A stretch of 51,430 bases of DNA from a virus (taxonomy: Duplodnaviria; Caudoviricetes), in IMG/VR virus record IMGVR_UViG_3300046059_000057, positions 1 to 51,430 of that record; one strand, given 5' to 3'. Below the pieces are notes generated by a model. The model did no database searches and was not told the origin of the DNA. It saw only the letters and a program-made list of their open reading frames with translations. The stretch's first letter is position 1. Every line of letters starts with the position of its first letter. Positions 1-51,430 of the stretch are shown piece by piece. The translations under genes were made by a program, and so were the position numbers.

Positions 1-1
1 C

Positions 2-55
2 GAAGAACGACAAGAACTGTTCAACGAAGCGGAAGACCGAGGACTCAAGCTATGA
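2..55 (+). CDS. Partial CDS (C-terminus, EERQELFNEAEDRGLKL*)
   Basis: Open acidic frame from the window edge; TGA overlaps the ATG at 52 (ATGA coupling). Confidence 0.5.
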   Translation, partial: EERQELFNEAEDRGLKL

Positions 56-438
56 GTTACGAAAATTCGATACTTAGTAGGCTTCCACCGTCGGTTCAGG
101 AATACGCTGTTTCCCACGATGAAATCGGTGTTAATGAAATGCCGACGGAGTCGATTAACTGGGGCTTGCACGGCGAAGGGGACGGTGTAGCCTACCATAT
201 CCACGAATTCTCCGATAAAGATGGTATTGAACACACGGTTTCTTTCTACGATGAAGGTGACCGGTCATTCGGTTACATTGACGTTCAATCGTTTGAATGT
301 CAAAACGTCGTAAAAACGCCGTTTAATAACAGAAAAGTACGGAACCCATGTCTTCAATTTCGTCTCTTGGAACCATCGACTATTGTAACCGTTGGCGTTA
401 GTACCGACGGTTTACCGGTGTTCATAATATCCGGTTAA
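52..438 (+). CDS. Hypothetical protein
   Basis: 128-aa acidic ORF ending just before hammerhead 1. Confidence 0.7.
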   Translation: MSYENSILSRLPPSVQEYAVSHDEIGVNEMPTESINWGLHGEGDGVAYHIHEFSDKDGIEHTVSFYDEGDRSFGYIDVQSFECQNVVKTPFNNRKVRNPCLQFRLLEPSTIVTVGVSTDGLPVFIISG

Positions 439-454
439 ATCCGGACTACCTCTC

Positions 455-537
455 GGTATTGCGCCATACCTCCCCCTCGGCGGTTATCCGGGGGCTAAGG
501 CGCCTGATGAGTCCGATTAGGGTCCGGACGAAATACT
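455..537 (+). ncRNA. Type III hammerhead ribozyme HH1
   Basis: Stem III GGTA/TACT; triplet AUU (cut after 460); stem I GCGCC/GGCGC; core CTGATGA 504-510; stem II GTCCG/CGGAC; GAAA 530-533. Confidence 0.92.
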
Positions 538-552
538 AAGGTGTAATGCCAC

Positions 553-1008
553 ATGAAAGCGCTATATGCTGACGTTAAACACGTCACAGACGCGATCGAG
601 AAGTTGAACGGGGCCGTAGACTTAAGCGGTGAAGACGGTAGAATCACCGTTTATCCATCGGGGCCAGTAATGCGGGGTATAACCCTCACGGAGGCGAGGA
701 AACGTAACCTCATTAAAACGTTGGACCAGTCCGTTTGCTCGGTGAAAACCGATGGTGTCCGATGGACGATGGTGTTTCACCAAAAGATAACCGACGGTAC
801 ATTCGAGTTACGACCGGTTGAATCCGGTGAACAGGCGACGAGGATTGAGGAAATCGCTCCCATGTTGAAACCGGTGGTTCAGTCGATCGAAGACGAGTTT
901 AACGTAATTTCGTGGGATTTCTGCGAAGTTTCCGCCGCGAGCATCGGTAGCAACGGGCACTTCGTGGACTTCGAATTTCGGTACGTTATTACTTCAACGG
1001 AGCTATGA
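553..1008 (+). CDS. Hypothetical protein
   Basis: 151-aa ORF starting 16 nt after HH1. Confidence 0.75.
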   Translation: MKALYADVKHVTDAIEKLNGAVDLSGEDGRITVYPSGPVMRGITLTEARKRNLIKTLDQSVCSVKTDGVRWTMVFHQKITDGTFELRPVESGEQATRIEEIAPMLKPVVQSIEDEFNVISWDFCEVSAASIGSNGHFVDFEFRYVITSTEL

Positions 1009-1160
1009 ACAACGTTACTCACAACTTTCGGTTAATCGATGGCAGGTACGTATGTCAAGCGGAAGAATGTAGCTACGATACGTTGAACCGATGGACGGCG
1101 GTAGAACATTTCGCCGAAGAAACCACCGGTCTCAAGGAACCGGTGGAAGTCGTAGAATAA
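1005..1160 (+). CDS. Small Cys/His protein (MNNVTHNFRLIDGRYVCQAEEC..., 51 aa)
   Basis: Manual translation; ATGA-coupled to the upstream ORF; stop just before HH2. Confidence 0.6.
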   Translation: MNNVTHNFRLIDGRYVCQAEECSYDTLNRWTAVEHFAEETTGLKEPVEVVE

Positions 1161-1172
1161 CCCGAAATATTC

Positions 1173-1255
1173 CTTGTTTAGCGCCAGACCTGCCCTTCGG
1201 TTTACCGAAGGTAAGGCGCCTGATGAAACGGGGTAGGGTCCCGTTGAAAAACAAG
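1173..1255 (+). ncRNA. Type III hammerhead ribozyme HH2
   Basis: Stem III CTTGTT/AACAAG; triplet UUA (cut after 1180); stem I GCGCC/GGCGC; CTGATGA 1220-1226; stem II AACGGG/CCCGTT; GAAA 1246-1249. Confidence 0.93.
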
Positions 1256-1256
1256 T

Positions 1257-1412
1257 ATGTTCCGAGAACACGACGGTAGATACCTTCGGTGTACGGGCTG
1301 CGGCGGTCTCGTGGCACGTCCCGAAGAGGCAAAGTCATACGACGAAACACCGAAAACTCATGAGTGCGTGGATTTCGATGAAACAGGCGGTGCGCCAACG
1401 AATTTAATGTAA
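1257..1412 (+). CDS. Small CxxC protein (MFREHDGRYLRCTGCGG..., 51 aa)
   Basis: Manual translation; ATG 2 nt after HH2; stop abuts the next ORF. Confidence 0.65.
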   Translation: MFREHDGRYLRCTGCGGLVARPEEAKSYDETPKTHECVDFDETGGAPTNLM

Positions 1413-1413
1413 G

Positions 1414-2277
1414 ATGTTACGGTACATCCTGAAATACGGTCGGTCGGTGTATAAATGGCTCTTCCGTCGGGAAACGGCGGGGGGTACGGAAGACGAAAGT
1501 AACAACGAGGAACCGACGACGGAATCACCGGAGGAAACAACGGATGAGCCGTCTAACAGTTCAGCCGTTGAAACTCCTGAACCGACGGCGGAACCACCGG
1601 AGGACGAAGAAACCGAAGAACCAACGGTTAACCGCTCTTCGGAGGAGTCTGTAAACGTTCCTTGGCCGCCGTTTGTGGGTGGTGACGTGTGCCCGTGGCC
1701 GGAGCCTCCCGAGGAACCGAAAAACGTCATCGAGATACGGTTATACTGGCGCTCAAAGTCCACGGAGACCGCTTGTCATCAAGCGGTTAAATACGTCGAA
1801 TACTGCCTTCTCGACGCGTTTTCCGATCAGGGATATGACGTTGATGTTTCCGTTCATTCAGAGCCTATACCGGTGGGAGTCGACTTTTCATCGTGGTACT
1901 GGACGCTTGATGATATGGCTAAGGATGCGAATATCGCTTTTCATCCATACGGTAGTGTCTACGGTGCCGCCGGTGGATACGGCGGTTGGATGGACCCATC
2001 GTTCTTCGAGGGATGGGGCCGTGACCCGGGGGACCGTATCAAGAACGTCGGCGGTGATGGGGATTTCAACGGTCCAACCGCCGGTATTGTAACTCTATTA
2101 CATGAAATCGGTCATTGCCTCGGTTTATCGCATCTTGACCGGGTCGGGAACGAAGTTGAAGCGTACGGTAATGACTATACAACACCGATGAACGCGGGTT
2201 ACTCAAATACAACGAGAACCCGGTACATCTACGAGTATCACCCGTCGATTAAAAACCGGAAGCCTAAGGTACAATGA
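1414..2277 (+). CDS. Metzincin-type zinc metalloprotease with Glu/Pro/Thr-rich N-terminal linker
   Basis: HEIGHCLGLSH (HExxHxxGxxH) followed by a Met-turn-like TPMN. Confidence 0.75.
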   Translation: MLRYILKYGRSVYKWLFRRETAGGTEDESNNEEPTTESPEETTDEPSNSSAVETPEPTAEPPEDEETEEPTVNRSSEESVNVPWPPFVGGDVCPWPEPPEEPKNVIEIRLYWRSKSTETACHQAVKYVEYCLLDAFSDQGYDVDVSVHSEPIPVGVDFSSWYWTLDDMAKDANIAFHPYGSVYGAAGGYGGWMDPSFFEGWGRDPGDRIKNVGGDGDFNGPTAGIVTLLHEIGHCLGLSHLDRVGNEVEAYGNDYTTPMNAGYSNTTRTRYIYEYHPSIKNRKPKVQ

Positions 2278-2423
2278 TGTCGAAATGTCCGACTTGTGGT
2301 GACACGAACGCCGTACAATATGACGTAGACACGTACGAATGTCGTAGCTGCCGTACGCCCTTAAGAACCGACTGGTTAACGAACGACTGGACGTTACATG
2401 ACGATTATGAAACGTCAATGTGA
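2274..2423 (+). CDS. Zinc-finger microprotein (CPTC...CRSC, 49 aa)
   Basis: Manual translation; two CxxC pairs; ATGA coupling. Confidence 0.65.
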   Translation: MMSKCPTCGDTNAVQYDVDTYECRSCRTPLRTDWLTNDWTLHDDYETSM

Positions 2424-2523
2424 GGGATATTGTAACGGAATGGTAAAACTATCGGAGATTTATACGTTAAGCACCGGTGAACGCGTTTGCCCGAAATGTT
2501 ATCGTGAAGCGGTGAATCGTTGA
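2407..2523 (+). CDS. Zinc-finger microprotein (CEGYC...CPKC, 38 aa)
   Basis: Manual translation; four Cys; ends before a T-tract and HH3. Confidence 0.55.
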   Translation: MKRQCEGYCNGMVKLSEIYTLSTGERVCPKCYREAVNR

Positions 2524-2546
2524 ATCAATACCTTTTTTCCGTCGTT

Positions 2547-2624
2547 GTATCGCACCATACCTGCCCTCCGGTTTACCGGAGGCTAAGGTGCCTGACGAAA
2601 CGGGGTAGGGTCCCGTAGAAATAC
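2547..2624 (+). ncRNA. Type III hammerhead ribozyme HH3
   Basis: Stem III GTA/TAC; triplet AUC (cut after 2551); stem I GCACC/GGTGC; core CTGACGA 2592-2598; stem II ACGGG/CCCGT with a basal A-A mismatch; GAAA 2618-2621. Confidence 0.88.
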
Positions 2625-2628
2625 CACC

Positions 2629-2802
2629 ATGAAATCCGAAACACGGACGTTTGAACTGGAAAAGGTAACGAAGAACACGTTCCGGTACGAAGAAGCCACC
2701 GATGGCGTTCCACCGGCGTTTGGCAAGATTTACGTTCAGAAGTGGTTAATCGACGACGAACCGCCGGATGAGCTGTCAGTAACGGTTGAGACGAAGGAAT
2801 AA
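2629..2802 (+). CDS. Small protein (MKSETRTFELEKVTKNTFRYEE..., 57 aa)
   Basis: Manual translation; sole ORF between HH3 and HH4. Confidence 0.75.
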   Translation: MKSETRTFELEKVTKNTFRYEEATDGVPPAFGKIYVQKWLIDDEPPDELSVTVETKE

Positions 2803-2810
2803 CGGTCTAA

Positions 2811-2891
2811 CCTCCGTTATTGCGGTATACCTGATTTATAAACGTAAAACCGCCTGATGAGTCCGGGTAGGGTCCGGACGAAATACCGAGG
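2811..2891 (+). ncRNA. Type III hammerhead ribozyme HH4
   Basis: Triplet AUU (cut after 2821); stem I GCGGT/ACCGC; CTGATGA 2854-2860; stem II GTCCGG/CCGGAC; GAAA 2880-2883; stem III interrupted (TA/TA plus CCTC/GAGG). Confidence 0.88.
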
Positions 2892-2901
2892 TAATACCCA
2901 C

Positions 2902-3447
2902 ATGAATCCAACAGTAACCGTAATCGACGAAGGCGTTAGAACGGAGTATGAATTAATTCAAGCGATTAACGAAGGTGTTAGTATACCGACGGTTAAGTCG
3001 CTTCTTGACGTTCAAACAGCGCTCGACGAGGAAATGCTGGTTTCATCCGTTGACCGGAATAGTCATGTCGCCGAGAGAGCGGTGGAAGAAAACGTGTTCG
3101 CCGGTCAAATAATTTTACCGGGTTGGTTCGTTAACAATGACGCTGAACTGTCGGATAAATACGGCGAGATGCATCCCGGAGCCCGACTGACCATCGAAGG
3201 CCTCGTTGAGGATTATTCAGAGCCATCGTGGCGTGTAGTCGCCAGTAGAGACGTTGAACTACCGGGCCTTATCTTTGAGTACGAATGGACTTTCCTCCCG
3301 AAATCCGTTGTTACACTCATCCGCTTAGACGGTATCGGGGATATGGTAACGGCGGATAGAGTAAGTGAAGCGATCAACCGGTACCGACGTAATAAAACCG
3401 ATGAGTGGGCGGATATAACGTGGCAGGAGATGCTCGAAGCTTTATGA
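2902..3447 (+). CDS. Hypothetical protein
   Basis: Start moved from 2857 (an ATG inside the hammerhead core) to 2902, downstream of a GAGGT SD. Confidence 0.75.
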   Translation: MNPTVTVIDEGVRTEYELIQAINEGVSIPTVKSLLDVQTALDEEMLVSSVDRNSHVAERAVEENVFAGQIILPGWFVNNDAELSDKYGEMHPGARLTIEGLVEDYSEPSWRVVASRDVELPGLIFEYEWTFLPKSVVTLIRLDGIGDMVTADRVSEAINRYRRNKTDEWADITWQEMLEAL

Positions 3448-3587
3448 CGACGGAAACCCGGAGGTATGAATGCGGGAATTGTGATGGAACGTTAACCCGG
3501 GAAACCGTTGGTGAGCATTTCACGTGCGAGGATTGTGGCATCGTTGTAGCACCGGAATACGCCGAACAAGGTAGGAGGATACGATGA
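3444..3587 (+). CDS. Zinc-ribbon microprotein (CGNC...CEDC)
   Basis: TFIIB-like zinc-ribbon Cys spacing; ATGA coupling. Confidence 0.65.
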   Translation: MTTETRRYECGNCDGTLTRETVGEHFTCEDCGIVVAPEYAEQGRRIR

Positions 3588-3609
3588 TTAGTACGGTGGA
3601 GCATAACAC

Positions 3610-3708
3610 ATGAGCGACTTAATAACGGATTGTCCGGAGTGCGAACGTAAGAATAATCGGTTCGTTAATCCGGTTCGTTGTTATTACTGTGGCACGAAAT
3701 TCCGATGA
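3610..3708 (+). CDS. Zinc-finger microprotein (CPEC...CYYC, 32 aa)
   Basis: Manual translation; two CxxC pairs; overlaps the next ATG. Confidence 0.55.
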   Translation: MSDLITDCPECERKNNRFVNPVRCYYCGTKFR

Positions 3709-4010
3709 CTGCTCAACGAAAATTGGGTGACTATTCCGATAGTACCGAACTTGAAACTACGGAAGACCGTGGTATTCGGAGAACCGCTATTGCTTTACGT
3801 GAAGCACCGGATAACGCTGAACCTAATAATCCGTTATCTTGTCCGTGGTGCCTCGCGTCACCCGACGGTTTCAAAGTCACAACGAACGACGACGTAATAG
3901 GTAAATACCCGAAGCCGGATGAGCGGCTTGTATCGTGTGGGAACTGTAACGCCTGTATCCCGACGGAGGCAGACTGGTACCTCCGGGGACGTAAAATATG
4001 TCTGAGTTGA
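3705..4010 (+). CDS. Zinc-finger protein (CPWC...CGNC)
   Basis: Two CxxC pairs; start at ATG 3705. Confidence 0.7.
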   Translation: MTAQRKLGDYSDSTELETTEDRGIRRTAIALREAPDNAEPNNPLSCPWCLASPDGFKVTTNDDVIGKYPKPDERLVSCGNCNACIPTEADWYLRGRKICLS

Positions 4011-4396
4011 CAATCACGACGGTTAATTCGGTTGAACGTCGGTTATTACCGATTTTGGATGATTACAAGTCCTTTAAAGCCGAATATCGTACGGCGGAAG
4101 CGGTAATACAACCGGTTGACGGTGAACTACGTGTGCCATACGTTGCACGACGGAATCCCGGTGATTTCAAGGCTCTGATGGACGTTTTAACCGACGAATT
4201 GAATCACACGAGGTTTCGGTTTATCGGTACAAGCGTCCCTCCTTCGGAGGTATTCACGAAAATCGGCCCTTCCGACGCGAGGACTATCCATGAGGCGGTT
4301 AATGGATTTACCGAAGAAACGCTACGAGAGTACGTTAACGATCGAGGGGACATAGAACCGGTGGAAACGCTGGTTGGCGATTGGAAGCCCGATTGA
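3998..4396 (+). CDS. Hypothetical protein
   Basis: 132-aa ORF ending a few nt before HH5. Confidence 0.75.
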   Translation: MSELTITTVNSVERRLLPILDDYKSFKAEYRTAEAVIQPVDGELRVPYVARRNPGDFKALMDVLTDELNHTRFRFIGTSVPPSEVFTKIGPSDARTIHEAVNGFTEETLREYVNDRGDIEPVETLVGDWKPD

Positions 4397-4400
4397 GCGT

Positions 4401-4480
4401 TTTGTAGCACCATACCTGCCCTCCGGTTTACCGGAGGCTAAGGTGCCTGACGAACCGTAGTAGGGTTACGGTGAAACAAG
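4401..4480 (+). ncRNA. Type III hammerhead ribozyme HH5
   Basis: Stem III TTG/CAA; triplet GUA (cut after 4406); stem I GCACC/GGTGC; CTGACGA 4447-4453; stem II ACCGTA/TACGGT; GAAA 4473-4476. Confidence 0.92.
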
Positions 4481-4494
4481 GAGACGATAAACCG

Positions 4495-4740
4495 ATGGAG
4501 AATAAGGTAACTGGTTCGATAATCGGAGAATTGATACTCGGTGAGTTGTACGATTGGCACGTCGGTATCTGTCGTGTCAAGTACGACGGCGGTAACACCG
4601 CTGATATCGTGGTTTACGACGAGAATGACCACGTACTCAAACGGTTGGATATCGAGGAATACACCGATGACGCGATACATCTGGATGCTATTGCCGATAC
4701 CGTTAATGCAACGGTTCAACGGGAAATGGAACGGTTATAG
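4495..4740 (+). CDS. Hypothetical protein
   Basis: ATG after an AGGAG SD; the ORF-track start at 4471 lies inside HH5. Confidence 0.7.
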   Translation: MENKVTGSIIGELILGELYDWHVGICRVKYDGGNTADIVVYDENDHVLKRLDIEEYTDDAIHLDAIADTVNATVQREMERL

Positions 4741-4741
4741 C

Positions 4742-4975
4742 ATGGAGTGGAAACGGAAATCCGAGGTCTCCGAGATGTATTGTGCGGTTCATAACGTTGA
4801 TTGTTCGTTGCACCGGCATCCCGAAGACCCGTGGGTGTTAGCACTCGATCCCACGAAGATACCGGATGCGTGGATATGCCCAAAGAGCGTACAAGAAATC
4901 GCAGTATTCGGGGAGCAAGCGGATTTACGTGTCGAGAGGAATCGTGATACGAATAACCCGAATCTACCGCCATGA
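4742..4975 (+). CDS. Hypothetical Cys/His protein
   Basis: MEWKRKSEVSEMYCAVH...; starts 1 nt after the previous stop. Confidence 0.6.
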   Translation: MEWKRKSEVSEMYCAVHNVDCSLHRHPEDPWVLALDPTKIPDAWICPKSVQEIAVFGEQADLRVERNRDTNNPNLPP

Positions 4976-5103
4976 TAACGGTTACAACGATTTATAAGGT
5001 CAAGACACCGGATGGCACCGTTTATCAGACAACCGATGCTGAAACTGCGGGTACGGAATCCCGTAGAGGCGGTTACGTTACAGCGGTGGTAACCGATGCC
5101 TGA
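4972..5103 (+). CDS. Small hypothetical protein (43 aa)
   Basis: Manual translation MITVTTIYKVKTPDG...; ATGA coupling. Confidence 0.55.
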   Translation: MITVTTIYKVKTPDGTVYQTTDAETAGTESRRGGYVTAVVTDA

Positions 5104-5221
5104 ATCAATCCTACGGGAAAACGACGAATGTCCGGCGTGTAAGAAACCCGGGGAAACCGGTGAAGCGTGGTTACTATGCACTACCTTTCAATGCAGAGTG
5201 GTAAACTACGAAGAACGGTGA
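5096..5221 (+). CDS. Zinc-finger microprotein (CPAC...CTTFQC, 41 aa)
   Basis: Manual translation; four Cys; overlaps the upstream stop. Confidence 0.6.
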   Translation: MPESILRENDECPACKKPGETGEAWLLCTTFQCRVVNYEER

Positions 5222-5226
5222 GCGGC

Positions 5227-5394
5227 GGATTCTACGTGCGTATGTCGGTAAGCCTCAAGTCCCCCGAAATAAGCGAACGTTCTTACGTTCGTAATAACCG
5301 CTCGACGTACGGTTACTTGAACGTAGACCTTGGGGGTTTGACCGGCTTCGGGGGTAGGGGTTATCGACGCCAGAATCCAATCCCGGACGTTCAA
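5227..5394 (+). ncRNA. Putative multi-stem structured RNA of unknown class
   Basis: Nested pairings GGATTCT/AGAATCC, GTCGGTAA/TTATCGAC, CCCCCGAA/TTCGGGGG plus internal hairpins. Confidence 0.5.
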
Positions 5395-5468
5395 TTAAAC
5401 GCCGTTCAAGGGTACAGTAAACCGAATAACCGTTGGTATTCAATCCAACGAACCACCGTACGTTAAAC

Positions 5469-6491
5469 ATGAAACAGTACGAATTTCATTCGACCGAGGG
5501 GTACGATAAGTTTACAAACGCCGGAGAAACGCCATTGGCGGAGGCCAAACGCCATTCCGTGTACGCGGATAGGGCACACGCTTTTAACGAAGAACCGAAG
5601 GGCAGAAAACACTACGCTGAACTTGAAACGAAATCCGCTGTGTTCAACGATAGAGACGACGAATTGGCGTATGTGAGTTCCGATATTTACGACTTGATTC
5701 AGCATCACGAGGTATTTGACGCCGTTAAAACCGCTGTCGATGCGACTGTGGGCGAAATCGATTTCGGTATGATACGCGATTACGGGGCCAGAGTTGACGG
5801 GGTCGTTGTCTTCGGGAATCAGTCGGAGGCTAACATCGATATGCGTGAGTTACTCGGTGATTCGTATATACCTCCGGAAGGTCGACCGGATACTGACCCA
5901 ACAGCAGAGGATTCAAGATGGCGTGATAGCGTTGGCTTGGGTATGAGATTCCGGAATTCGTTTGACGGGGACACGAAAATCGGCGGTAGTACGATGGGAT
6001 ACCGGTACATCTGCCAGAATTGGCTTGTGTGGGATGAAGCGGAAATCGGGTCCGTTGAACGGTCGCATACGCGTTCTCGTGACGCCGAAGATGGCATTGA
6101 ACCCGATTTCTTCGTCGATATTATAACTGACGTGTTTGAGGTTCGTGAACAGGTAGAATCGCTGTTAACCGAGGCAGCGGAGACAGAGGTTCCATTAACG
6201 TGGGTACCCGGTGTTTTAGAGCAAAACAATTTCGGAGAGAACTACCAGAAACGAATAACCGGTCGGGTACTCGCTCAAGACTCCGGAAGTCGGTCGGAGG
6301 ACGAAACGTCAATGTGGAACGTTTATAATGCTACAACGGCGGAGCTTGATCGGAATACCGCTGAATCCTCCGGTAAAACGTATGACTATTATCAGTCGTA
6401 TGCTTGGGGTATGCTTGATTCGGAGATCGGTGAAATCGAAGAACCGACGGAGGATATGAGTGAGTTACGGGATTTCGCTATAGCTCCGTAA
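5469..6491 (+). CDS. DUF932/DUF945-like mobile-element protein
   Basis: RNSFDG...GYRYICQN pattern typical of this family; ATG at 5469. Confidence 0.65.
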   Translation: MKQYEFHSTEGYDKFTNAGETPLAEAKRHSVYADRAHAFNEEPKGRKHYAELETKSAVFNDRDDELAYVSSDIYDLIQHHEVFDAVKTAVDATVGEIDFGMIRDYGARVDGVVVFGNQSEANIDMRELLGDSYIPPEGRPDTDPTAEDSRWRDSVGLGMRFRNSFDGDTKIGGSTMGYRYICQNWLVWDEAEIGSVERSHTRSRDAEDGIEPDFFVDIITDVFEVREQVESLLTEAAETEVPLTWVPGVLEQNNFGENYQKRITGRVLAQDSGSRSEDETSMWNVYNATTAELDRNTAESSGKTYDYYQSYAWGMLDSEIGEIEEPTEDMSELRDFAIAP

Positions 6492-6511
6492 AAACGGAAC
6501 CCCGTTATTTG

Positions 6512-6568
6512 CCGTCGTTCCATACCTTAAGGAACCTGATGAACCGGGGTAGGGTCCCGGTGAAACGG
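6512..6568 (+). ncRNA. Type III hammerhead ribozyme HH6 (minimal, 57 nt)
   Basis: Stem III CCG/CGG; triplet GUC (cut after 6516); stem I GTTCC/GGAAC; CTGATGA 6536-6542; stem II ACCGGG/CCCGGT; GAAA 6562-6565. Confidence 0.95.
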
Positions 6569-6575
6569 AGGTACT

Positions 6576-6809
6576 ATGGAAATACAACGGTTATACCGCG
6601 ACAACGAGCTCGATGAAACGACGGTTAGAATCGTAGGCCACCGCTCTAAGGAAATGTTAGACGGAATACACGCCATAACCGATGAATCATCGGTTGAACG
6701 TAATGTGTATGCTTCGTCGGAAACCACGAAGATAGCCTATAAGAAACCGGTTGAAGCGAACGTTGAGAAAACCGAAGAAGGAAACGTTCTCCGGATACAT
6801 GACCGGTGA
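6576..6809 (+). CDS. Hypothetical protein
   Basis: ATG after a GGAGGT SD that overlaps the HH6 3' end. Confidence 0.75.
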   Translation: MEIQRLYRDNELDETTVRIVGHRSKEMLDGIHAITDESSVERNVYASSETTKIAYKKPVEANVEKTEEGNVLRIHDR

Positions 6810-7200
6810 TAGATTCGACGCTTGGATGAATCAAGCGGAGGAGAATACCGATAAGTGGGGCGTTCAACCGCCGGCTGACGTCGTTCTCGCTATCATGGAG
6901 GAACTCGCGGAGGTTACCGAAGAAATACTTTATACCTCCGAAATACCGTCGGGCCAACGGGATATGGATGAACCGGTGTTAATGAGTTACATCGTTGAGA
7001 TAGCGGTTCTTGGAACGGAAATCCGTGAAGAGCTCGAAAACCAATATGAAGACGAAAACGGTCGGCCTATCCCGGAACATGAACGGCCAACCGTACTCGG
7101 AAGAATAAACGACCCTAAAGCAGTTGACCGTGAGCTGGATGACCTCGGTCCATTAGTCGTTCAGCTTGCGGAAAGTATTGACGAATACTCGAAGGAATAA
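6799..7200 (+). CDS. MazG-like all-alpha NTP pyrophosphatase-fold protein (tentative)
   Basis: WG.Q...MEELAEV..E and ELDDL acidic motifs. Confidence 0.45.
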   Translation: MTGDRFDAWMNQAEENTDKWGVQPPADVVLAIMEELAEVTEEILYTSEIPSGQRDMDEPVLMSYIVEIAVLGTEIREELENQYEDENGRPIPEHERPTVLGRINDPKAVDRELDDLGPLVVQLAESIDEYSKE

Positions 7201-7203
7201 CGT

Positions 7204-7350
7204 ATGGTACAACGGAACGCGAAAAAGACGGCTACAGGCAACTTCGTCGTCGAATGCCCGTCATGCGGGCAAACGATACAATTGACGGGTAGCCCGTGTG
7301 ATTTCTGCGGAGAACCGTACAGTATAACCGTCGAGTTCCCGGGGGTATGA
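7204..7350 (+). CDS. Zinc-finger microprotein (CPSC...CDFC, 48 aa)
   Basis: Manual translation; CPxCG motif. Confidence 0.65.
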   Translation: MVQRNAKKTATGNFVVECPSCGQTIQLTGSPCDFCGEPYSITVEFPGV

Positions 7351-7413
7351 CCCCTCCGCCGTTAGCCGACGGTTGAACCGCTCTACGAGCGAGGGTACGA
7401 AATACCGATGGTG

Positions 7414-7498
7414 TCTGTCTTCCGTCGCCCAGCCAACGGCTAACCGTCGTTAAGGGCCTGATGAGTTCGGTGTGGCGACCGGTGAAACGAAAGACGGG
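7414..7498 (+). ncRNA. Type III hammerhead ribozyme HH7 (divergent)
   Basis: Long stem III TCTGTCTTCCG/CGAAAGACGGG; triplet GUC (cut after 7426); stem I GCCC/GGGC; CTGATGA 7458-7464; GAAA 7484-7487. Confidence 0.85.
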
Positions 7499-7556
7499 TT
7501 CAAGGGCGCCAGAACTGGCGCCGGGTGAGCGTTTACCGCCGCGGTACTTAAAGATT

Positions 7557-7718
7557 ATGACAAGGTACGAACCAAAAACCGCCGTATTGAAATGCGGTGG
7601 TAGAGACAGGGGTAACGTTGAAATCCCGGATGACGGGATTATAGTGGAGAGGCGAGCCGTCGGAGGTTTAGCCGCTGAAAAGGTCGTTATTACGTGGTTA
7701 CACCCAATTGATACATGA
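7557..7718 (+). CDS. Small hypothetical protein
   Basis: MTRYEPKTAVLKC...; the ORF-track start at 7461 is inside HH7. Confidence 0.55.
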   Translation: MTRYEPKTAVLKCGGRDRGNVEIPDDGIIVERRAVGGLAAEKVVITWLHPIDT

Positions 7719-8191
7719 ACGTCTTTTGGCTTGACTCCGATTACGATACGGCTGCCCGATGTATGATTGACTCCCACGTCGGTTCTAAGATGATTGTTGA
7801 AGCCGCTCAAATCATCGGTGAAGCGCTTCAAGCCAACGGTTTCAAGCAACCGTTCCTAAGGTCCGGGTACCCGTCTCACCCATTAGTAAAGTGGGCGGCG
7901 GAGTCGTCGGAGAACGTTCGTACCGTTGGACTAATGGCTTCAGCGATGTATCGTGAGAAGAAGCATAGATACGGCGGGGGCCACAAGTCATACGAAGAAG
8001 GAATTGAACCGATCGATTTCCGTAGTATTGAGTACGGTGGTGCGTACACGGAGCCGCCGAAATGCATGGACGATAAATACGTTCATTCCGACTTAGTACC
8101 GTCGTACCGTCACTATTACGCTTGCGAGAAAACGGTAGGAGCAAGCTGGACGGACCGATCGGAACCTGATTGGATAGAATCATGGCGCTAA
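7715..8191 (+). CDS. Pyrimidine-dimer DNA glycosylase / endonuclease V-like protein
   Basis: MNVFWLD..AA...D.HV.KMIVEAAQ...HP..KWA pattern of the DenV/Pyr_excise-related family. Confidence 0.7.
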   Translation: MNVFWLDSDYDTAARCMIDSHVGSKMIVEAAQIIGEALQANGFKQPFLRSGYPSHPLVKWAAESSENVRTVGLMASAMYREKKHRYGGGHKSYEEGIEPIDFRSIEYGGAYTEPPKCMDDKYVHSDLVPSYRHYYACEKTVGASWTDRSEPDWIESWR

Positions 8192-8379
8192 CCGACGATC
8201 AGAAGCGTACGTTAAGCGAAATACCGTCGGTTGGATTTCACATTAACACCGGTGGACCGTGTGAATGCGGTGGTGAGAACTATCGTACAACGAAAACTCA
8301 CGGGTTTAGTGATTCGATAGTCTACCGGCACAAGTGCCAAACCTGCGGGAATGAGTTTTCAACGTGGATAGAGGGCTAA
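8182..8379 (+). CDS. Zinc-ribbon protein (CECG...CQTCG)
   Basis: Cys pairs; C-terminal HKCQTCGNEF. Confidence 0.65.
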   Translation: MALTDDQKRTLSEIPSVGFHINTGGPCECGGENYRTTKTHGFSDSIVYRHKCQTCGNEFSTWIEG

Positions 8380-8561
8380 GCCTCGGAATGCCGAATTCGT
8401 ATTTACGCATAACTGAAATCGTCTCGACCTCCGGTTTCGCCAGAGCGACGGTGTATCGCACTTACAGTCGTTGGGCGTTCTCCCCATTGGCAACGGGTCA
8501 CGGATGTAAGCTTCAGGAGACCGGTTAGTCGGTACCGGTTCCCGTTATACCGTCTGATTTT

Positions 8562-8625
8562 TCGTTCCGGCATACCTCGGTAAAAAGCCGGCTGATGAAG
8601 CGGGTTTAGGGTCCCGTTGAAACGA
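8562..8625 (+). ncRNA. Type III hammerhead ribozyme HH8
   Basis: Stem III TCG/CGA; triplet GUU (cut after 8566); stem I CCGGC/GCCGG; CTGATGA 8592-8598; stem II AGCGGG/CCCGTT; GAAA 8619-8622. Confidence 0.92.
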
Positions 8626-8629
8626 CACT

Positions 8630-8965
8630 ATGAACCGCTCAACACCGACGCCCAAGATAATCATAGAAACCGCCGCGAAGAATCCAGATGCGTCGTTTAA
8701 AGAGATAGCCAACATAATCAACGGGGAAACCAACGGTCCGATAGTTCAACCGTCGTACGTTAAGAGGGTCTTAAACGGGGAAATCGTAGAGTTAACGATT
8801 TCTTATACCATCGACCTAACTGATGATGACCTCGACGGTTTACCGGATGTGGATACGGTTCATCGGTATACTGAAGATACGGAACACCGTACCGAAAACC
8901 GCTCAACCGTCGGGGGTACAGGGAGTCAAGGTGCTCCCTCCGGTGATTCGTCGGAGGAAACTTAG
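8630..8965 (+). CDS. Putative HTH DNA-binding protein
   Basis: NPDASFKEIA...SYVKRVL HTH-like pattern; ATG 5 nt after HH8. Confidence 0.55.
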   Translation: MNRSTPTPKIIIETAAKNPDASFKEIANIINGETNGPIVQPSYVKRVLNGEIVELTISYTIDLTDDDLDGLPDVDTVHRYTEDTEHRTENRSTVGGTGSQGAPSGDSSEET

Positions 8966-8966
8966 T

Positions 8967-9272
8967 ATGGACGAGTTCTTCGACCTCGTTGATACCGAAG
9001 TTACCGACGATTATCTTCGTCAGGTGCATGGTCACGAGGCGGAGCAGGATATCGATCTTCCAGAGGTTAAGAAACCGCTTCTTGAAGTTCTCATCGACGG
9101 GCAGATTAGCGCTTTCAACGACTGTGTTTCCGGGGGCAGAACCGCGAAAGCAGCCCTGCATTACCGGTTGATTGTACGGTTACTGGAATCCGACGGTGAA
9201 CTACGTGAAGCTTTCGAAAAACATCAAAGTCAGCATCCGTTGGCTTCAGTATTCGGGGAAACGGAGTTCTGA
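8967..9272 (+). CDS. Hypothetical protein
   Basis: MDEFFDLVD...; starts 1 nt after the previous stop. Confidence 0.7.
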   Translation: MDEFFDLVDTEVTDDYLRQVHGHEAEQDIDLPEVKKPLLEVLIDGQISAFNDCVSGGRTAKAALHYRLIVRLLESDGELREAFEKHQSQHPLASVFGETEF

Positions 9273-9643
9273 GTATTATTTCTTCGATTTTCCGTGGAAT
9301 TGTTTACCAGCAAATTTTGCCTATAGTGATTCTACGTATAACCGAAGATACAAGCGTTCTCTCTTTCAGGATTGTATATACCTTAGTAAGGTACCCGTTT
9401 CGATCGACGGTAGAGAGCTGTTAACCGTTGTAAAGCGTACGTAAACGGCTACAGATACGTTTACTCCGTTTAAAACGACTGTTCCTCCGGATAACCGTTG
9501 ATAATTTTTCGGTGAAATTAAAAGTTTCGATGAGCGTGCGATTCTACGGCACCTTATCTTAGAGCCGGTGAATCAGATAGCCTTGGGAAAGATTATCGGG
9601 GTTACATGGGAAAGATTAAGGCCTTCGACGGTAAAGAGCTTCT

Positions 9644-9949
9644 ATGGGCGGAGTTGATATGGATAATCGGTTGGACGTAGAAGTACCGTTAGATTTCTTT
9701 AACCCGGAGAAATCCGAAGGTACTAAGAATCCGAAGGCACGGGAACATATGGCGAAGGTAGCACAGTTTTCCGCCGGCGGTTTAACGGCTTTAGAGTATG
9801 CAGAGAAAGCGTTAGTTGATGAAAACACGGCGTACCGCGTTCTACAAGAAGCTGTAACCGAAGGGAAAATGAAAACGGAAACCCGGGAAACCGAAGGCAG
9901 AGGCGAACACCCAACGGTTTACACCGTTGATAGACCCGTTGGTACGTGA
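9644..9949 (+). CDS. Putative winged-helix DNA-binding protein
   Basis: LTALEYAE...NTAYRVLQE...GRGEHPTVY wHTH-like layout. Confidence 0.55.
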   Translation: MGGVDMDNRLDVEVPLDFFNPEKSEGTKNPKAREHMAKVAQFSAGGLTALEYAEKALVDENTAYRVLQEAVTEGKMKTETRETEGRGEHPTVYTVDRPVGT

Positions 9950-9974
9950 CAAGGTTCGATTCCTTGAGGGTCCC
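9932..9974 (+). ncRNA. tRNA-like mini-element A (acceptor stem plus T-arm)
   Basis: GACCC/GGGTC stem stacked on CAAGG-TTCGATT-CCTTG; no anticodon arm. Confidence 0.5.
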
Positions 9975-10074
9975 TTGGGGCCGGAGAACCGCCCTCATGT
10001 GGGGCGGCACCCGCGTCAGGCCGGGTTAAATACTCCGTGCCCCAGTCACACGCTCCGTGCCTCCGGTTTTCCGG

Positions 10075-10157
10075 GGGCACGTAGTGGGTATAAAGGCCTC
10101 CGACGGTACATCGTCTGTACCATCGGTGGGCCGAGGGTTCAAATCCCTCTGTACCTC
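10075..10157 (+). ncRNA. tRNA-like element B
   Basis: GGGCACG/TGTACCT acceptor-like stem; T-arm GAGGG-TTCAAAT-CCCTC; a long irregular stem replaces the anticodon arm. Confidence 0.5.
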
Positions 10158-10179
10158 CGGAAAACCGGAGGGCAGGCGT

Positions 10180-10231
10180 GCTCCCGAAGTATTCGGACTT
10201 GATACCGGTGGTTCGATTCCGCCCGGGGGCG
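10180..10231 (+). ncRNA. tRNA-like mini-element C
   Basis: 7-bp acceptor GCTCCCG/CGGGGGC; T-arm GGTGG-TTCGATT-CCGCC; 20-nt linker. Confidence 0.6.
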
Positions 10232-10244
10232 TGAGGTACTACCG

Positions 10245-10514
10245 ATGAAAGCGGAGTTCAGTAACGTCGATCAGTTGTCGAATTGGCTTTCAGACGTCGT
10301 TAATCCGATGAAGTACGACGTATATTATGAAACGTTAGACCGTCGGTGTTTCGCCATTAAAAACGTTTCGACGGAACCCCGGTTGCACGGGGTGGTGAAT
10401 AACGTAGATATCGGAGAAATTGAGGACGTTGCAGATTCGTACAATCGTACGTTAACCGTAGTTAAGTCGTTCGAATGGGAACATGAGGCTACCACCGGTA
10501 ATACGGATTTATGA
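10245..10514 (+). CDS. Hypothetical protein
   Basis: 89 aa; GAGGT SD directly after element C. Confidence 0.7.
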   Translation: MKAEFSNVDQLSNWLSDVVNPMKYDVYYETLDRRCFAIKNVSTEPRLHGVVNNVDIGEIEDVADSYNRTLTVVKSFEWEHEATTGNTDL

Positions 10515-10729
10515 AATACAAAAATTCCGGTGTTTCAAGTGACAGTTTCACGGATTCCGTGCACGTACGTGTAACCGCTGGTGACACGCCTGACGACTTC
10601 GAGAGTTATGCGGTTTTCGACGACGTGACACAGGTCTCCGAGGAATTCGTCGGACGGCATGGGAAACGTGGAGCTCGGAGATACGCCCGGGGATACGCTG
10701 AAGCTAAAGTACGATACACCGATGGATGA
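10511..10729 (+). CDS. Hypothetical protein
   Basis: 72 aa; ATGA coupling. Confidence 0.6.
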   Translation: MKYKNSGVSSDSFTDSVHVRVTAGDTPDDFESYAVFDDVTQVSEEFVGRHGKRGARRYARGYAEAKVRYTDG

Positions 10730-11141
10730 AACCTACGAGGACTTGATTGAATTAGCACGGGAAAACGGTCTTAGAGACATCGCAGATACGATTGAGTATC
10801 TGCTCGATACCACCGACCCCCTCGCCGTTGAACCCGATGAATATTCTGCTACCGGCGATTTAGCGTTTTGCTTTCGGTCAGGCGTTGTTTGGGGCATTGA
10901 AAACGAAAGATCGGAAACCGGTCGTAGTAAGCCAAACGATCGTGAAGCCTTCGTTTCAAGCTTATTGTCTAATGGGAAAACACGGTTAGCCGACGCGTTT
11001 GATTATTGTTGGGCGAATTCCGAAGAGGTTACTTCTAATGATTTCGATGTCACGGAATTACCGATCGAGGGGGATAGATTAGGCGCTTTTTCGATTGGTA
11101 TGTCGGTTGGAATGACCTTGGAACGTCGGGAAAAGAAATAA
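10722..11141 (+). CDS. Hypothetical protein with internal duplication
   Basis: Two similar units: IADTIEY...AFCFRSGVVWGIENER and LADAFDY...AFSIGMSVGMTLERR. Confidence 0.7.
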   Translation: MDETYEDLIELARENGLRDIADTIEYLLDTTDPLAVEPDEYSATGDLAFCFRSGVVWGIENERSETGRSKPNDREAFVSSLLSNGKTRLADAFDYCWANSEEVTSNDFDVTELPIEGDRLGAFSIGMSVGMTLERREKK

Positions 11142-11203
11142 GTGAAACGCCGGTTAACGAAAGCCAGCGTGAGTCTAACCGTCACCGAACCCTCAACAGT
11201 ACC

Positions 11204-11300
11204 CGGTGATACAGGCGAACGCTTCGGTGGAAACCGAGGGCTGTGAGAGGCCCGAATCCCGGATAAGGGGTTGGTCGTGCCCCGAAACCGGGTGTTACCG
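11204..11300. ncRNA. Putative multibranch structured RNA at the convergent gene junction
   Basis: Closing stem CGGTGATAC/GTGTTACCG with internal hairpins. Confidence 0.45.
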
Positions 11301-11301
11301 T

Positions 11302-11751
11302 TTATTCAAATACCTCGGTGCCTAAATTTAGTTGTTCAGCCCATTCATCGGCGGTTAACCGACGGTATTTTGGTCCTAATTGATCGAGTAACTCTTCGAA
11401 GGCCGAAGTTATATCCTCCGGAATTCCGGATAAATCAAGCCTATATTCGTCATTCAGGTAACCGGCGGTTTCCTCCGGAGTAACATCGGATTCAACCGAA
11501 TTTCCGATCAGCCATGTATCAAGGTCATCGATAGCATCGTCATGCACCGATTCTTCAGCGGTTATACCAGCGAAGTAGACTTCGCCATCCGACGTCGTAT
11601 CCCCCGGAAAACCGTCGGGGGCACTTATCAACGAACCGTTCCACCCTTGAACGGTGTCTCTATCCGTATACTTCGGTTGAACCGTCGTTTCTTCCGGGTT
11701 CTCTACTTCTATCACCGGTAAAACGTAGGCTTTTGTGCTCGTCATGTTCAA
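11302..11751 (-). CDS. Hypothetical protein (last gene of the tail module)
   Basis: 149-aa acidic ORF. Confidence 0.7.
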   Translation of the reverse strand: MNMTSTKAYVLPVIEVENPEETTVQPKYTDRDTVQGWNGSLISAPDGFPGDTTSDGEVYFAGITAEESVHDDAIDDLDTWLIGNSVESDVTPEETAGYLNDEYRLDLSGIPEDITSAFEELLDQLGPKYRRLTADEWAEQLNLGTEVFE

Positions 11752-11792
11752 CCGGAAGAACCTCGCTCCGGCGGGGTCATCGGTATCAACAG

Positions 11793-42815: not shown

Positions 42816-43312
42816 CGGAATACAAGCAAACCGTCGGTAGATGTAAAGGTTGTTCGGAGAACCGTCGGTACATAGCACCGTGGGGGGACACGGATTCATC
42901 CACCGGTATCGTCGGTACTCAACCGGGGGACCAACACCCCGAAGAATCCGAATGTGTATTCGGTTTAGACCTCGGTTATACCGCTTGGAGCGGTGAAGTT
43001 CTCGAAGACGTTTTCGAGGAGTTAGACTACGAAATGTCGGGGTATTACTGGACGAATGCTATCAAGTGTGTTGAAGCCGACGGGAACACGTGCGGAGACC
43101 TGCTTAAACGTGAATTATCAACGTTTTCGAAAATCCTCCTATTGGGGAACGATACCGTTGATACAGCCCCCGGGTTACCGGGTTCCGACGTCTATAAACT
43201 CTGGCACCCCGCTTACGTACACCGGAACCGTCGGAAATTTGATGCTTACGTACGTCGATGGAGGGACGTGTTAACCGAAGAGTCACCGTCTACACTATCG
43301 GACTTCGCTTGA
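42812..43312 (+). CDS. Uracil-DNA glycosylase superfamily (family 4-like) protein
   Basis: CKGC, VGTQPG, WTNAIKC, LLLG and WHPAY motifs. Confidence 0.75.
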   Translation: MTEYKQTVGRCKGCSENRRYIAPWGDTDSSTGIVGTQPGDQHPEESECVFGLDLGYTAWSGEVLEDVFEELDYEMSGYYWTNAIKCVEADGNTCGDLLKRELSTFSKILLLGNDTVDTAPGLPGSDVYKLWHPAYVHRNRRKFDAYVRRWRDVLTEESPSTLSDFA

Positions 43313-43367
43313 CTGGTGTGCCCTCCGGTTTTCCGGAGGCTACGGGGTTCGATTCCCCGGAAGCGAT
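43305..43367 (+). ncRNA. tRNA-like mini-element D
   Basis: TCGCTT/AAGCGA acceptor-like stem; T-arm CGGGG-TTCGATT-CCCCG; internal CCTCCGG/CCGGAGG hairpin. Confidence 0.55.
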
Positions 43368-43395
43368 TGGGTAGCGACCAACCGCTGTGAGACTG

Positions 43396-50468: not shown

Positions 50469-51430
50469 GCTAATTGTTACGATTAACCGATGGATGGAAA
50501 CGTTAAACTTTCGTAAGTTTAAGCTCTGTACCGTCGGGGGTAATGGATTCCGGTGGTTCTAAGAGCCGGTGTTCTATCTACGGTTTTCCGGTTGTTCTTA
50601 TATGACGGTTAACACCGTGTATCGCGAATCCGGTGGTTCAGAGGTTCTACGTTCCGCTTTATTGAAACTGGCATTCGGTTGTTATACCGTAATTCCCCGG
50701 TACCTACGTCGTTGTAGCTTTGCACCGTCGGTTTAACCGGAGTCTATTTGTTCGCCTCCGACCCTCACCCTTCACGTAGCTAAAACTCCAATCCCGGCCG
50801 TTCCTAATCCGACGTTTCAGAGGCATCGGTTTTGCGTAGATACAACGTTTGAGTCATGTAATTCCGGAGAACCGTTGCAGCGTGACGGTAGCATGAAGTC
50901 TATCGGTGCTTTAGCTCCCGACGGTAGTACTCGTATACCCACGGAATACAAAATCGTTGATACTTTCGTGAACGCGTCGGATTAGAGATACGTCGGTAGA
51001 GATTAAGTACCGTCGGTTTATAGTACGACGTCGGTGATTAGTTATTTACGACTTACCGCATACGTAATACCGAAGTAAATACGTCTAAAGACGTATTATA
51101 AATACGGTCGTTGATTACTCAAAAATACGGGTAATCGCATACGAAAAATCGAAACAATTTTCAGTTTAAACGTATTATAGAACCGGTTTCATTTATACCA
51201 ACGCTACGAAAAACCGCCGAAGGTTCATTCTGCCTATCTACGATTAGTCGGTACCGGTGAACCGGTCAGTTCAAATCGTTTCTATCGTCGGTCTTTCGGT
51301 TTTCGATGGTACAAGCGTTCTTAGTACGGGTTTTCAAGCTAGTAGTTTGGGTCTAATTACGGTAGAGCGGTTAAACCGACGGTTGATCGCATACGATACT
51401 TCGAAACGTAGATTTCTGTTAATCGTAGGT

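Follow-up and report, generated by a model that had tools for sequence, protein, structure and literature searches.

Eight type III hammerhead motifs at gene junctions of a probably haloarchaeal tailed virus, and their likely role in processing an operon transcript

The window analysed here is an entire 51,430-bp source record from a tailed dsDNA virus. Near one end of the genome, a co-directional block on the + strand (52..9272) holds about 27 small ORFs, most of them unannotatable; several encode CxxC zinc-ribbon mini-proteins, one carries DUF932 and another matches a PHROG DNA-binding protein. Judged solely by its gene content, the block would be an early one. It is divided by an array of eight hammerhead ribozyme motifs, HH1 to HH8, that spans 455-8625, and every intergenic gap of at least 84 nt within 439-8629 contains one of them. 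The capsid and terminase proteins most resemble those known from haloarchaeal viruses, with MCP and TerL showing 40-44% identity to their Halorubrum virus counterparts; on these identities, the archaeal virus proposed in the initial annotation is likely.

Searching for the core pattern CTGAYGA-N10-30-GAAA gave eight matches in the 51,430 bp, all on the + strand and all within 504-8622. Dinucleotide shuffles averaged 1.55 matches with a maximum of 5, none of 100 reaching eight, and the backwards-read control sequence held no match to the pattern. We also trained a covariance model, R1, on HH1, HH2, HH3 and HH5 only and searched with filters off. Applied to both strands of the record, R1 recovered HH4, HH6, HH7 and HH8 and found no full-length element beyond the eight. 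Pattern and model thus agree on the eight type III hammerheads with full cores described in the initial annotation, and re-reading the sequence returned the same predicted cuts, after positions 460, 1180, 2551, 2821, 4406, 6516, 7426 and 8566. The Rfam hammerhead search that had been suggested as a check came out otherwise, with no match at gathering scores; in E-value mode RF00008 returned only HH4, in a shifted register, and its 18.5 bits fall short of the 48.5-bit cut-off. This sub-threshold score is a limit of the curated model and not a failure on structural grounds. Single-sequence minimum free energy (MFE) folding gave a clean three-way junction only for HH2, the other copies mostly preferring other structures, and MFE z-scores were weak (-0.15 to -2.4).

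All eight elements lie on the + strand, and the four used in training score highest with R1. HH1 (455..537; predicted cut after U460; 92.3 bits) has a 5-bp stem III, a long stem I with the internal loop AUACCU (466-471) and the stem II loop UUAGGGU, and is followed by an SD-like AAGGUG and the start codon at 553. HH2 (1173..1255; cut after A1180; 102.5 bits) has a 7-bp stem III and the stem I loop AGACCU, its ATG at 1257 lying 1 nt past stem III. HH3 (2547..2624; cut after C2551; 103.1 bits), with a stem III of 4 bp, the core CUGACGA and an A.A at 10.1/11.1, precedes ATG 2629, and its position is matched by a copy at 444 of the metagenomic contig L145. HH5 (4400..4481; cut after A4406; 103.9 bits) begins 3 nt past the upstream stop codon, and its 3' strand continues into AAGGAG before ATG 4495.

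The other four elements were outside the training set. In HH4 (2812..2891; cut after U2821; 57 bits), stem III has nine positions with two mismatches and its 3' strand carries the SD-like GAGGU, ahead of ATG 2902; the orthologous position is 1085 of contig L142. HH6 (6512..6568; cut after C6516; 56 bits) has a stem III of only 4 bp and a short hairpin with the loop AUACCUUAA as stem I, and its 3' strand ACGG continues into GGAGGU before ATG 6576; the orthologous copy, L142:6113, carries compensatory changes in stems I and II. HH8 (8562..8625; cut after U8566; 48.2 bits) combines a 4-bp stem III with a stem I hairpin whose loop is AUACCUCGGUAAAAA, and precedes ATG 8630. The divergent HH7 (7417..7495; cut after C7426; 26.2 bits, E 3e-6) retains a canonical core and has a 9-bp stem III with one A.C, an irregular stem II and a next ATG at 7557; it does not have the family loops, and its GCCA (7432-7435) is complementary to UGGC (7473-7476). 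Seven elements form one subclass, with HH7 as the divergent one. Just upstream of HH7, also on the + strand, lies a probable decayed copy (7336..7416) that aligns along HH4 and HH1 (alignment A6), retains ACGAAAUACCGA, has a mutated core (CUCUACGAG) with stem II mostly deleted, and scores just 7.9 bits with R1. Some of the eight may themselves be slow or inactive, given the short stem III of HH3, HH6 and HH8, the A.A of HH3 and the stem II of HH7.

Beyond the record, R1 found another 20 copies, spread over 11 metagenome contigs, and a single one in a different viral contig. Related metagenomic contigs repeat the arrangement, with up to five copies on a 7.9-kb contig; L142 carries five, L143 three, and L138, L144 and L145 two each. 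We fitted 28 copies to the model as family alignment A5. Because 12 of the 20 metagenomic copies were picked by a pattern requiring the core and both loops, conservation of core and loops is partly by construction; the stems were outside that pattern. CUGAUGA or CUGACGA is present in all eight window copies and in 28/28 of the family, and GAAA in all eight and in 27 of the 28, the exception being L143:2917, where the model register reads GUUA and GAAA follows further downstream, past an insertion. U16.1 and the A15.1:U16.1 pair are invariant (28/28), and H17 (A5 column 8) is A, C or U in every copy and never G, as an NUH cleavage triplet demands. The topology is type III throughout, with stems I and II closed by loops and stem III open.

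The stems argue for selection on the fold. In A5, 91.6% of stem cells are paired compared with 70.3% in shuffles, a level reached by none of 500 shuffles, and double changes occur in 20 pairs. Pairing reaches 100% in stem I, 94.6% in stem II and 90% in stem III, and the pairs that covary number 5/5, 6/6 and 4/5, respectively. RNAalifold independently gave the three-stem fold, with compensatory changes in 15 of 16 pairs. The compensatory stem changes initially noted in the window thus extend to strong covariation of all three stems across the 28 copies, in an alignment fitted to the model. Two short sequences, ACCU in stem I and GGGU in loop II, hardly vary, are paired in 25-26 of the 28 copies and never covary; HH7 alone, a single case, swaps them for its complementary GCCA and UGGC, and L142:4614 accommodates the pairing only in a shifted register. 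Together, the comparative data support reading the elements as true type III hammerheads that evolution has maintained at the cassette junctions, on the coding strand.

Placement is equally regular. As first described, all eight window elements are intergenic and co-directional with the ORFs; in the contigs as in the window, each element follows one ORF's stop codon and precedes the next start codon, on the coding strand. The distance from the upstream stop to the predicted cut is 10-28 nt for six of the eight. At the other end, stem III finishes 1-15 nt before an ATG in seven elements and 61 nt before one in HH7, in line with the original reading. In 11 of the 28 copies, stem III overlaps or is followed by an SD-like motif of at least 5 nt; in roughly half of the family the stem's 3' strand leads into an SD-like GGAGGU or GAGGU. 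L142 is syntenic with window 2.3-7.3 kb and carries hammerheads at the junctions that HH4 and HH6 occupy here, with stems that differ by compensatory changes. Occupancy of junctions varies among relatives, L142:2618 having no counterpart in the window, and because copies are present or absent between relatives, no single junction strictly needs a hammerhead.

We consider it likely that this array cuts the polycistronic RNA of the co-directional small-gene block into separate cassettes. Beyond the motif, fold conservation, placement and recurrence described above, we infer cleavage, a single transcript and any effect on stability or translation. Each element would fold while the polycistronic RNA is being made and self-cleave after its own NUH site, and subtracting the cut positions gives cassettes of 720, 1371, 270, 1585, 2110, 910 and 1140 nt, the lengths initially proposed. 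The upstream product would end in a 2',3'-cyclic phosphate and retain just the short 5' strand of stem III. The downstream product would begin with a 5'-OH buried in stem I and carry the whole ribozyme body as its leader, with the start codon 1-15 nt after stem III; that the folded body should form a structured 5' leader, as the initial annotation had it, follows from type III anatomy. Where stem III leads into an SD-like motif, as in roughly half of the family, cleavage and loss of the 4-9-bp stem should also free the ribosome-binding site. The overall outcome would be gene cassettes whose stability and translation no longer depend on one another, each with a standard leader. On the initially suggested protection by a 5'-OH, precedents disagree: in Bacillus, RNase J1 degrades the glmS ribozyme product that carries such an end.

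Because promoters could lie inside upstream coding ends, the single transcript is presumed, and each hammerhead might instead sit just downstream of its own promoter and trim a short leader, so that the block would consist of many small transcription units with no long precursor. We regard this as unlikely. There is room for promoters in the gaps that precede HH7 (66 nt) and HH8 (182 nt), A-T-rich stretches are visible by eye ahead of several cut sites, and the 5' end of an HF2 early transcript coincides with a hammerhead cut site in the available text of Perreault et al. 2011 (PMC3088659). However, because only 10-28 nt separate stop and cut in six of the eight, a TATA box at about -27 would there fall within the upstream ORF or right at its end, and a scan for promoters of bacterial rather than archaeal type ran at chance (11 found, 13.0 expected).

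Several features of the copies themselves would suit a different reading, in which the junction of about 80-100 nt made up of hammerhead, SD and start codon is mainly a portable linker whose copies recombine and shuffle cassettes among co-infecting viruses, with cleavage secondary or dispensable. The in-genome copies are close paralogues: HH3 and HH5 are identical in stem I, HH1 and HH4 have stem II and the downstream ribosome-binding site in common, and the 5' strand of HH1 pairs over 9 bp with the 3' strand of HH4 compared with 5 bp with its own. The cassettes lying between hammerheads form a mosaic among the window, L142 and L145, the junction GGAGGUAAUACCACGAUG is found again across contigs, and a decayed copy exists (7336..7416). 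Yet strong covariation by compensatory change, and a catalytic core kept intact in 27-28 of the 28 copies, show selection on the RNA fold and active site, beyond DNA identity, and the stems of most copies are too different for efficient homologous recombination; we judge this reading quite improbable.

Doubly cut cassettes could also end up as circular mRNAs, closed by the hammerheads themselves in a reverse ligation through a hybrid stem III or by an RtcB-type ligase of the host. The established end chemistry, 5'-OH and 2',3'-cyclic phosphate, would fit, Perreault et al. (PMC3088659), in the part available, raised spliced or circular products as possible, and a 7-bp hybrid stem III can form at three adjacent pairs (HH6-HH7, HH7-HH8 and L145:444-848). 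However, a hybrid of at least 5 bp occurs in only these 3 of 16 adjacent pairs, about 1.2 being expected from a background of 7.3% among 756 non-self ordered pairs, and the remaining 13 reach 1-3 bp. The same available text reports that such products were sought and none detected in the systems studied there, and a Pfam search of the virus returned no RNA ligase. We therefore give circularisation little credence. An extended version, in which a portable junction of hammerhead and ribosome-binding site replaces promoters and terminators, and archaeal RtcB-type ligases turn the cassettes into exonuclease-proof circular mRNAs translated from an internal SD, is similarly far-fetched, although the three 7-bp hybrids would be its first trace. 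That the core matches are chance or non-functional look-alikes, as the empty Rfam gathering search and weak z-scores might suggest, is next to inconceivable against shuffles that never reach eight matches, the confinement of all matches to one strand and to intergenic sites, the covariation across 28 copies and the positions kept in syntenic relatives.

According to a 2019 review, it was still unknown what the hundreds of hammerheads found in bacterial, archaeal and phage DNA do. As a natural test case this genome is unusually clean, with eight co-oriented copies, each fixed between a stop and a start codon, seven of one subclass and half sharing stem III with a ribosome-binding site, and with relatives whose junctions keep, gain or lose copies. 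Standard Rfam annotation misses the whole subclass (29 copies), and ribozyme punctuation of viral operons may for that reason be under-counted. Should cleavage be confirmed in high salt, the family would serve as a compact model of how ribozymes process mRNA and unmask translation in archaea, and would supply natural insulator parts functional at molar salt.

The proposed arrangement recalls mitochondrial tRNA punctuation, where structured RNAs at gene junctions set the cuts that free individual mRNAs from one precursor. There RNase P and RNase Z cut in trans, whereas here the element would cleave itself and stay on the downstream mRNA. Among hammerheads, the window copies share with Rfam Hammerhead_3 (RF00008) the same core, three-helix junction and open stem III, but are set apart as a subclass by their fixed loop pair AUACCU / UAGGGU and by a stem I that is long or looped.

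The single hammerhead of haloviruses HF1 and HF2, HHphage (Perreault et al. 2011, PMC3088659; annotated at NC_003345 10292-10359), was noted again for the HF1 group in the available text of Dyall-Smith et al. 2020 (PMC7230728). It too lies on the coding strand of a haloarchaeal tailed virus, 11-13 nt before a start codon, in a block of small, CxxC-rich genes called early in the accessible part of PMC3088659, which also maps the 5' end of the HF2 early transcript to within 3 nt of its cut site and describes a need for very high Mg2+ in vitro. In contrast to the eight copies here, HHphage is present once per genome and has type II topology, with a 2-nt insertion in the core next to C3 (order in HF2: GAAA-hairpin-cut site-hairpin-CUG..GACGA); the core of the window copies is uninterrupted. 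We rejected assignment of the window copies to this class, as the type II topology and C3 insertion are absent; an R1 search of HF2 did not detect HHphage, which has no sequence similarity to the window elements.

A close parallel is with the prophage clusters of Perreault et al. 2011 (PMC3088659), likewise several co-oriented hammerheads between genes or short gene blocks of one phage transcription unit. As far as the available text goes, clustered phage hammerheads were proposed there to cut long transcripts down to mRNAs the length of a gene or operon, and triples from prophages cleave in vitro as well as in E. coli. The motif thus has precedent, and so has its occurrence in phage clusters, as the initial annotation allowed for the motif; its reading of a dedicated transcript-processing system is plausible, with the novelty overstated. 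The clusters tested, as described in that text, are triples that mix types I, II and III and come from bacterial prophages, and pseudoknot-type tertiary contacts between stems I and II are common in the prophage set. Here, by comparison, eight elements, all type III, occupy 8.2 kb of a probable archaeal virus and abut start codons, often sharing stem III with an SD-like motif. Relative to those tested triples the density of the array is unusual and looks new, as do the fusion of ribozyme to ribosome-binding site and start codon and the conserved loop pair AUACCU / UAGGGU.

A search of the record with the core pattern CTGAYGA-N10-30-GAAA returned eight matches, all on the + strand and all within positions 504–8622, compared with 1.55 on average and at most 5 in the shuffled record and none in a control read backwards. 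Each match has its parts in the same order: the 5′ strand of stem III with U16.1 and H17 at its end, the stem I hairpin, CUGAYGA, the stem II hairpin, GAAA and the 3′ strand of stem III. Read in context, all eight are type III hammerheads (HH1, 455–537; HH2, 1173–1255; HH3, 2547–2624; HH4, 2812–2891; HH5, 4400–4481; HH6, 6512–6568; HH7, 7417–7495; HH8, 8562–8625), and re-reading the sequence placed the predicted cuts exactly where the initial annotation had them, after nucleotides 460, 1180, 2551, 2821, 4406, 6516, 7426 and 8566. A covariance model, R1, trained on HH1, HH2, HH3 and HH5 alone and run over both strands of the record with filters off, recovered the four untrained copies (HH4 at 57 bits, HH6 at 56, HH8 at 48.2 and HH7 at 26.2), with all other matches in the record being partial hairpins or scoring at most 18.4 bits. 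Together, the excess of core matches over shuffled sequence and the recovery of untrained copies confirm that the eight hammerheads are present. The Rfam models, proposed as a check in the initial annotation, gave no match at gathering scores across the whole window; in E-value mode (positions 1–12000) they returned only HH4, in another register and weakly (18.5 bits; cut-off 48.5).

In an alignment of 28 copies fitted to R1, for 12 of which the search pattern had fixed the core and loops, with the stems in neither constraint, every copy has an intact core heptamer, U16.1 and an H17 other than G, and GAAA is intact in 27. Paired cells amount to 91.6%, against 70.3% in shuffles, none of 500 of which scored as high, and a one-column shift of the partner strand lowers pairing to at most 54%. 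Double compensatory changes occur in 15 of the 16 pairs of stems I–III, and RNAalifold on its own returned the same three helices. Taken singly, only HH2 folds cleanly into a hammerhead by minimum free energy, with z-scores of the copies ranging from −0.15 to −2.4; stem III is just 4 bp long in HH3, HH6 and HH8, HH3 carries an A·A at 10.1/11.1, and stem II of the divergent HH7 is irregular. The 5′ strand of HH1 stem III (455–460) pairs over 9 bp with the 3′ strand of HH4 (2883–2891) and over 5 bp with its own partner, and the two elements, which have stem II and the downstream RBS in common, resemble recent paralogues or recombinants.

The hammerheads had been described as intergenic, on the coding strand and near start codons, and this placement holds. 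Every intergenic gap of at least 84 nt between positions 439 and 8629 contains one, the only remaining gap there being 23 nt. From the last stem III pair to the next ATG the distance is 1–15 nt for seven elements and 61 nt for HH7. The cut follows the upstream stop codon by 10–28 nt in six elements, by 76 nt in HH7 and by 187 nt in HH8. The same stop–hammerhead–start layout is found in metagenome contigs. One of these, L142, is syntenic with 2.3–7.3 kb of the window at 36–69% amino-acid identity; one of its hammerheads precedes the homologue of a 181-aa protein, as HH4 does, and another follows a DUF932 protein, as HH6 does. At both junctions compensatory changes separate the L142 stems from those of the window copies. 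A copy at position 444 of contig L145 matches HH3 in position, the L142 copy at 2618 has no counterpart in the window, and a probable decayed copy (7336–7416) lies directly 5′ of HH7, which suggests ribozyme turnover or replacement at that one junction. Hammerheads have therefore persisted at certain junctions across considerable divergence, while other junctions have gained or lost them.

Two loops mark the subclass. AUACCU or AGACCU stands directly after the 5-bp proximal stem I in 26 of the 28 copies, in an internal loop or at the start of the hairpin loop, and the 6-bp stem II is closed in most copies by a loop ending in UAGGGU. ACCU and GGGU could pair, but these loops show no covariation across the alignment; in HH7 both are replaced, by the complementary GCCA and UGGC. 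Perreault et al. 2011 (PMC3088659) give pseudoknot-type loop–loop contacts for about 40% of hammerheads, and a contact of that kind is a likely, not an established, feature of the subclass judging from these motifs. Two metagenome copies on the − strand (L138, 1145–1230; L143, 2917–2979) have a large stem II insertion consisting of an additional hairpin ahead of the GGUAGGGU one; in the L143 copy the model alignment ends early and the real GAAA lies further downstream. In 11 of 28 copies the 3′ strand of stem III overlaps, or is immediately followed by, an SD-like word of at least 5 nt, GAAAUAACGGAGGUAAUACCACGAUG being a recurrent example. No more than 14 nt separate A15.1 from the first ATG in 12 of 28, including at least two (HH1 and the L142 copy at 1085) in which this ATG is not the real start codon.

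A strict class pattern (AUACCU, core, UAGGGU, GAAA) matched no other record in IMG/VR and matched 11 metagenome contigs, in which R1 identified 20 hammerheads, 12 being the pattern matches and 8 found by R1 alone. L142 carries five on one strand within 7,951 bp, L143 three, and L138, L144 and L145 two each. A looser core-plus-loop pattern listed at least 119 IMG/VR stretches, mostly single chance matches, and R1 run over these 119 gave one real copy (locus L089, 35.9 bits) and one marginal copy (locus L122, 21.2 bits). The sole strict-pattern match in species-representative genomes, on a Sulfitobacter contig, is a chance one, with 14 bits and unpaired stems. R1 had no match in five IMG/VR records with TerL at 36–40% identity (five of ten such loci) or in Hardycor1, CGphi46 and HF2, blanks that carry little weight because for three genomes the first-pass filter gave no candidates. 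Neither blastn in distant mode with HH4 nor megablast with positions 1–9000 matched phages, and a look-up of sequencing runs matching positions 400–8700 came back empty.

The record, a complete IMG/VR entry of 51,430 bp that is classed as linear, represents a genome about 90% complete as estimated by CheckV, with a G+C content of about 50%. It encodes an HK97-type major capsid protein, portal, Mu-F-like head protein and large terminase at 11.8–38.5 kb (− strand), and a family B DNA polymerase with an intein, ThyX, a uracil-DNA glycosylase family protein, a methyltransferase, a thymidylate-kinase-like protein and an ERCC4 nuclease at 38.5–50.5 kb (+ strand). An intein-like Hint domain (residues ~480–560) splits the polymerase gene (45977–49420, +). 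The capsid protein has 40% identity to that of Halorubrum phage Hardycor1 and the terminase 44% to that of Halorubrum virus CGphi46, followed by Haloarcula tailed virus 3 and Halobacterium phage ChaoS9, and only 24% to Salinibacter phages. Because these proteins are closest to those of haloarchaeal viruses, an archaeal halophilic host is likely; the initial label of archaeal virus is thus probable rather than proven. Most cassette proteins received no name from Pfam or PHROGs. Many of the small ORFs of positions 1–8700 encode CxxC zinc-ribbon mini-proteins of 31–65 aa (for example 1257–1412, 2274–2423, 2398–2523, 3444–3587, 5096–5221, 7204–7350 and 8182–8379), and the hammerhead-containing block of HF2 likewise has many 'putative CxxC motif proteins'.

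No convincing ORF occupies the last ~950 bp (50470–51430), which, should the genome be circularly permuted, would directly precede the hammerhead block and could hold its promoter or a replication origin. A bacterial promoter and terminator scan, unsuited to archaea, gave chance-level results. Intergenic tRNA-like fragments at 9950–10235 and 43312–43370 (+) contain T-arm-like motifs, GGUUCGAUUCC and GGGUUCAAAUCCC. A 7-bp hairpin, CCUCCGG-NNNN-CCGGAGG, sits 5′ of each motif and closely resembles the distal stem I hairpin of HH2, HH3 and HH5, and these hairpins are partial R1 matches (E values of 8e-5 and 2e-4). ARAGORN called no tRNA in the fragments, and Rfam reported just a T-arm fragment of tmRNA. 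The fragments may represent RNase P/Z-type processing signals, remnants of att sites or a shared hairpin for protein binding.

Hammerhead cleavage is established to leave a 2′,3′-cyclic phosphate and a 5′-OH. By its anatomy, a type III topology would keep nearly the whole ribozyme on the downstream RNA. The 5′ end of that RNA would be paired in stem I, and the short stem III would have to open once cut, exposing the SD and start codon. Beyond this, it is inferred that one precursor RNA is made, that its timing is early and that stability or translation is affected. The 5′-OH end, initially suggested as possibly protective, is not necessarily so; in the case of the glmS ribozyme, it is the 5′-OH of the product that leads RNase J1 to degrade it. 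Cleaved RNAs could circularise via a hybrid stem III formed by neighbouring hammerheads, but only 3 of 16 adjacent pairs can form such a stem of at least 5 bp, with a background of 7.3%, and circularisation through hybrid hammerheads is not supported as a general rule. Pfam detected no RNA ligase, kinase or phosphodiesterase among the virus proteins.

Processing of one transcript into cassette RNAs, as the initial annotation proposed, is a reasonable interpretation but not a new one, having been put forward in kind by Perreault et al. 2011 (PMC3088659). That paper describes multiple hammerheads flanking genes in prophages, proposes that long transcripts are processed into gene-length mRNAs, and reports that triple arrangements cut; it also includes several hammerheads from saltern viromes and a single HF1/HF2 hammerhead before a helicase gene, with a cut site that coincides with a mapped 5′ end. 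Unlike the window subclass, to which it is unrelated in sequence, the HF2 hammerhead (annotated 10292–10359) has type II topology and an insertion in its core. Other work credits Sencilo et al. 2013 with hammerheads in haloarchaeal tailed viruses, and as late as 2019 a review described what such ribozymes are for as undefined. The partial literature covered here yielded neither an array this large nor any account of the subclass; the supplements of Perreault et al. 2011 may already list its saltern-virome copies. The eight elements belong to the hammerhead class, and what looks new relative to known clustered phage hammerheads is the density of eight copies in 8.2 kb, their membership of one conserved subclass missed by Rfam, and their physical fusion to the translation start.
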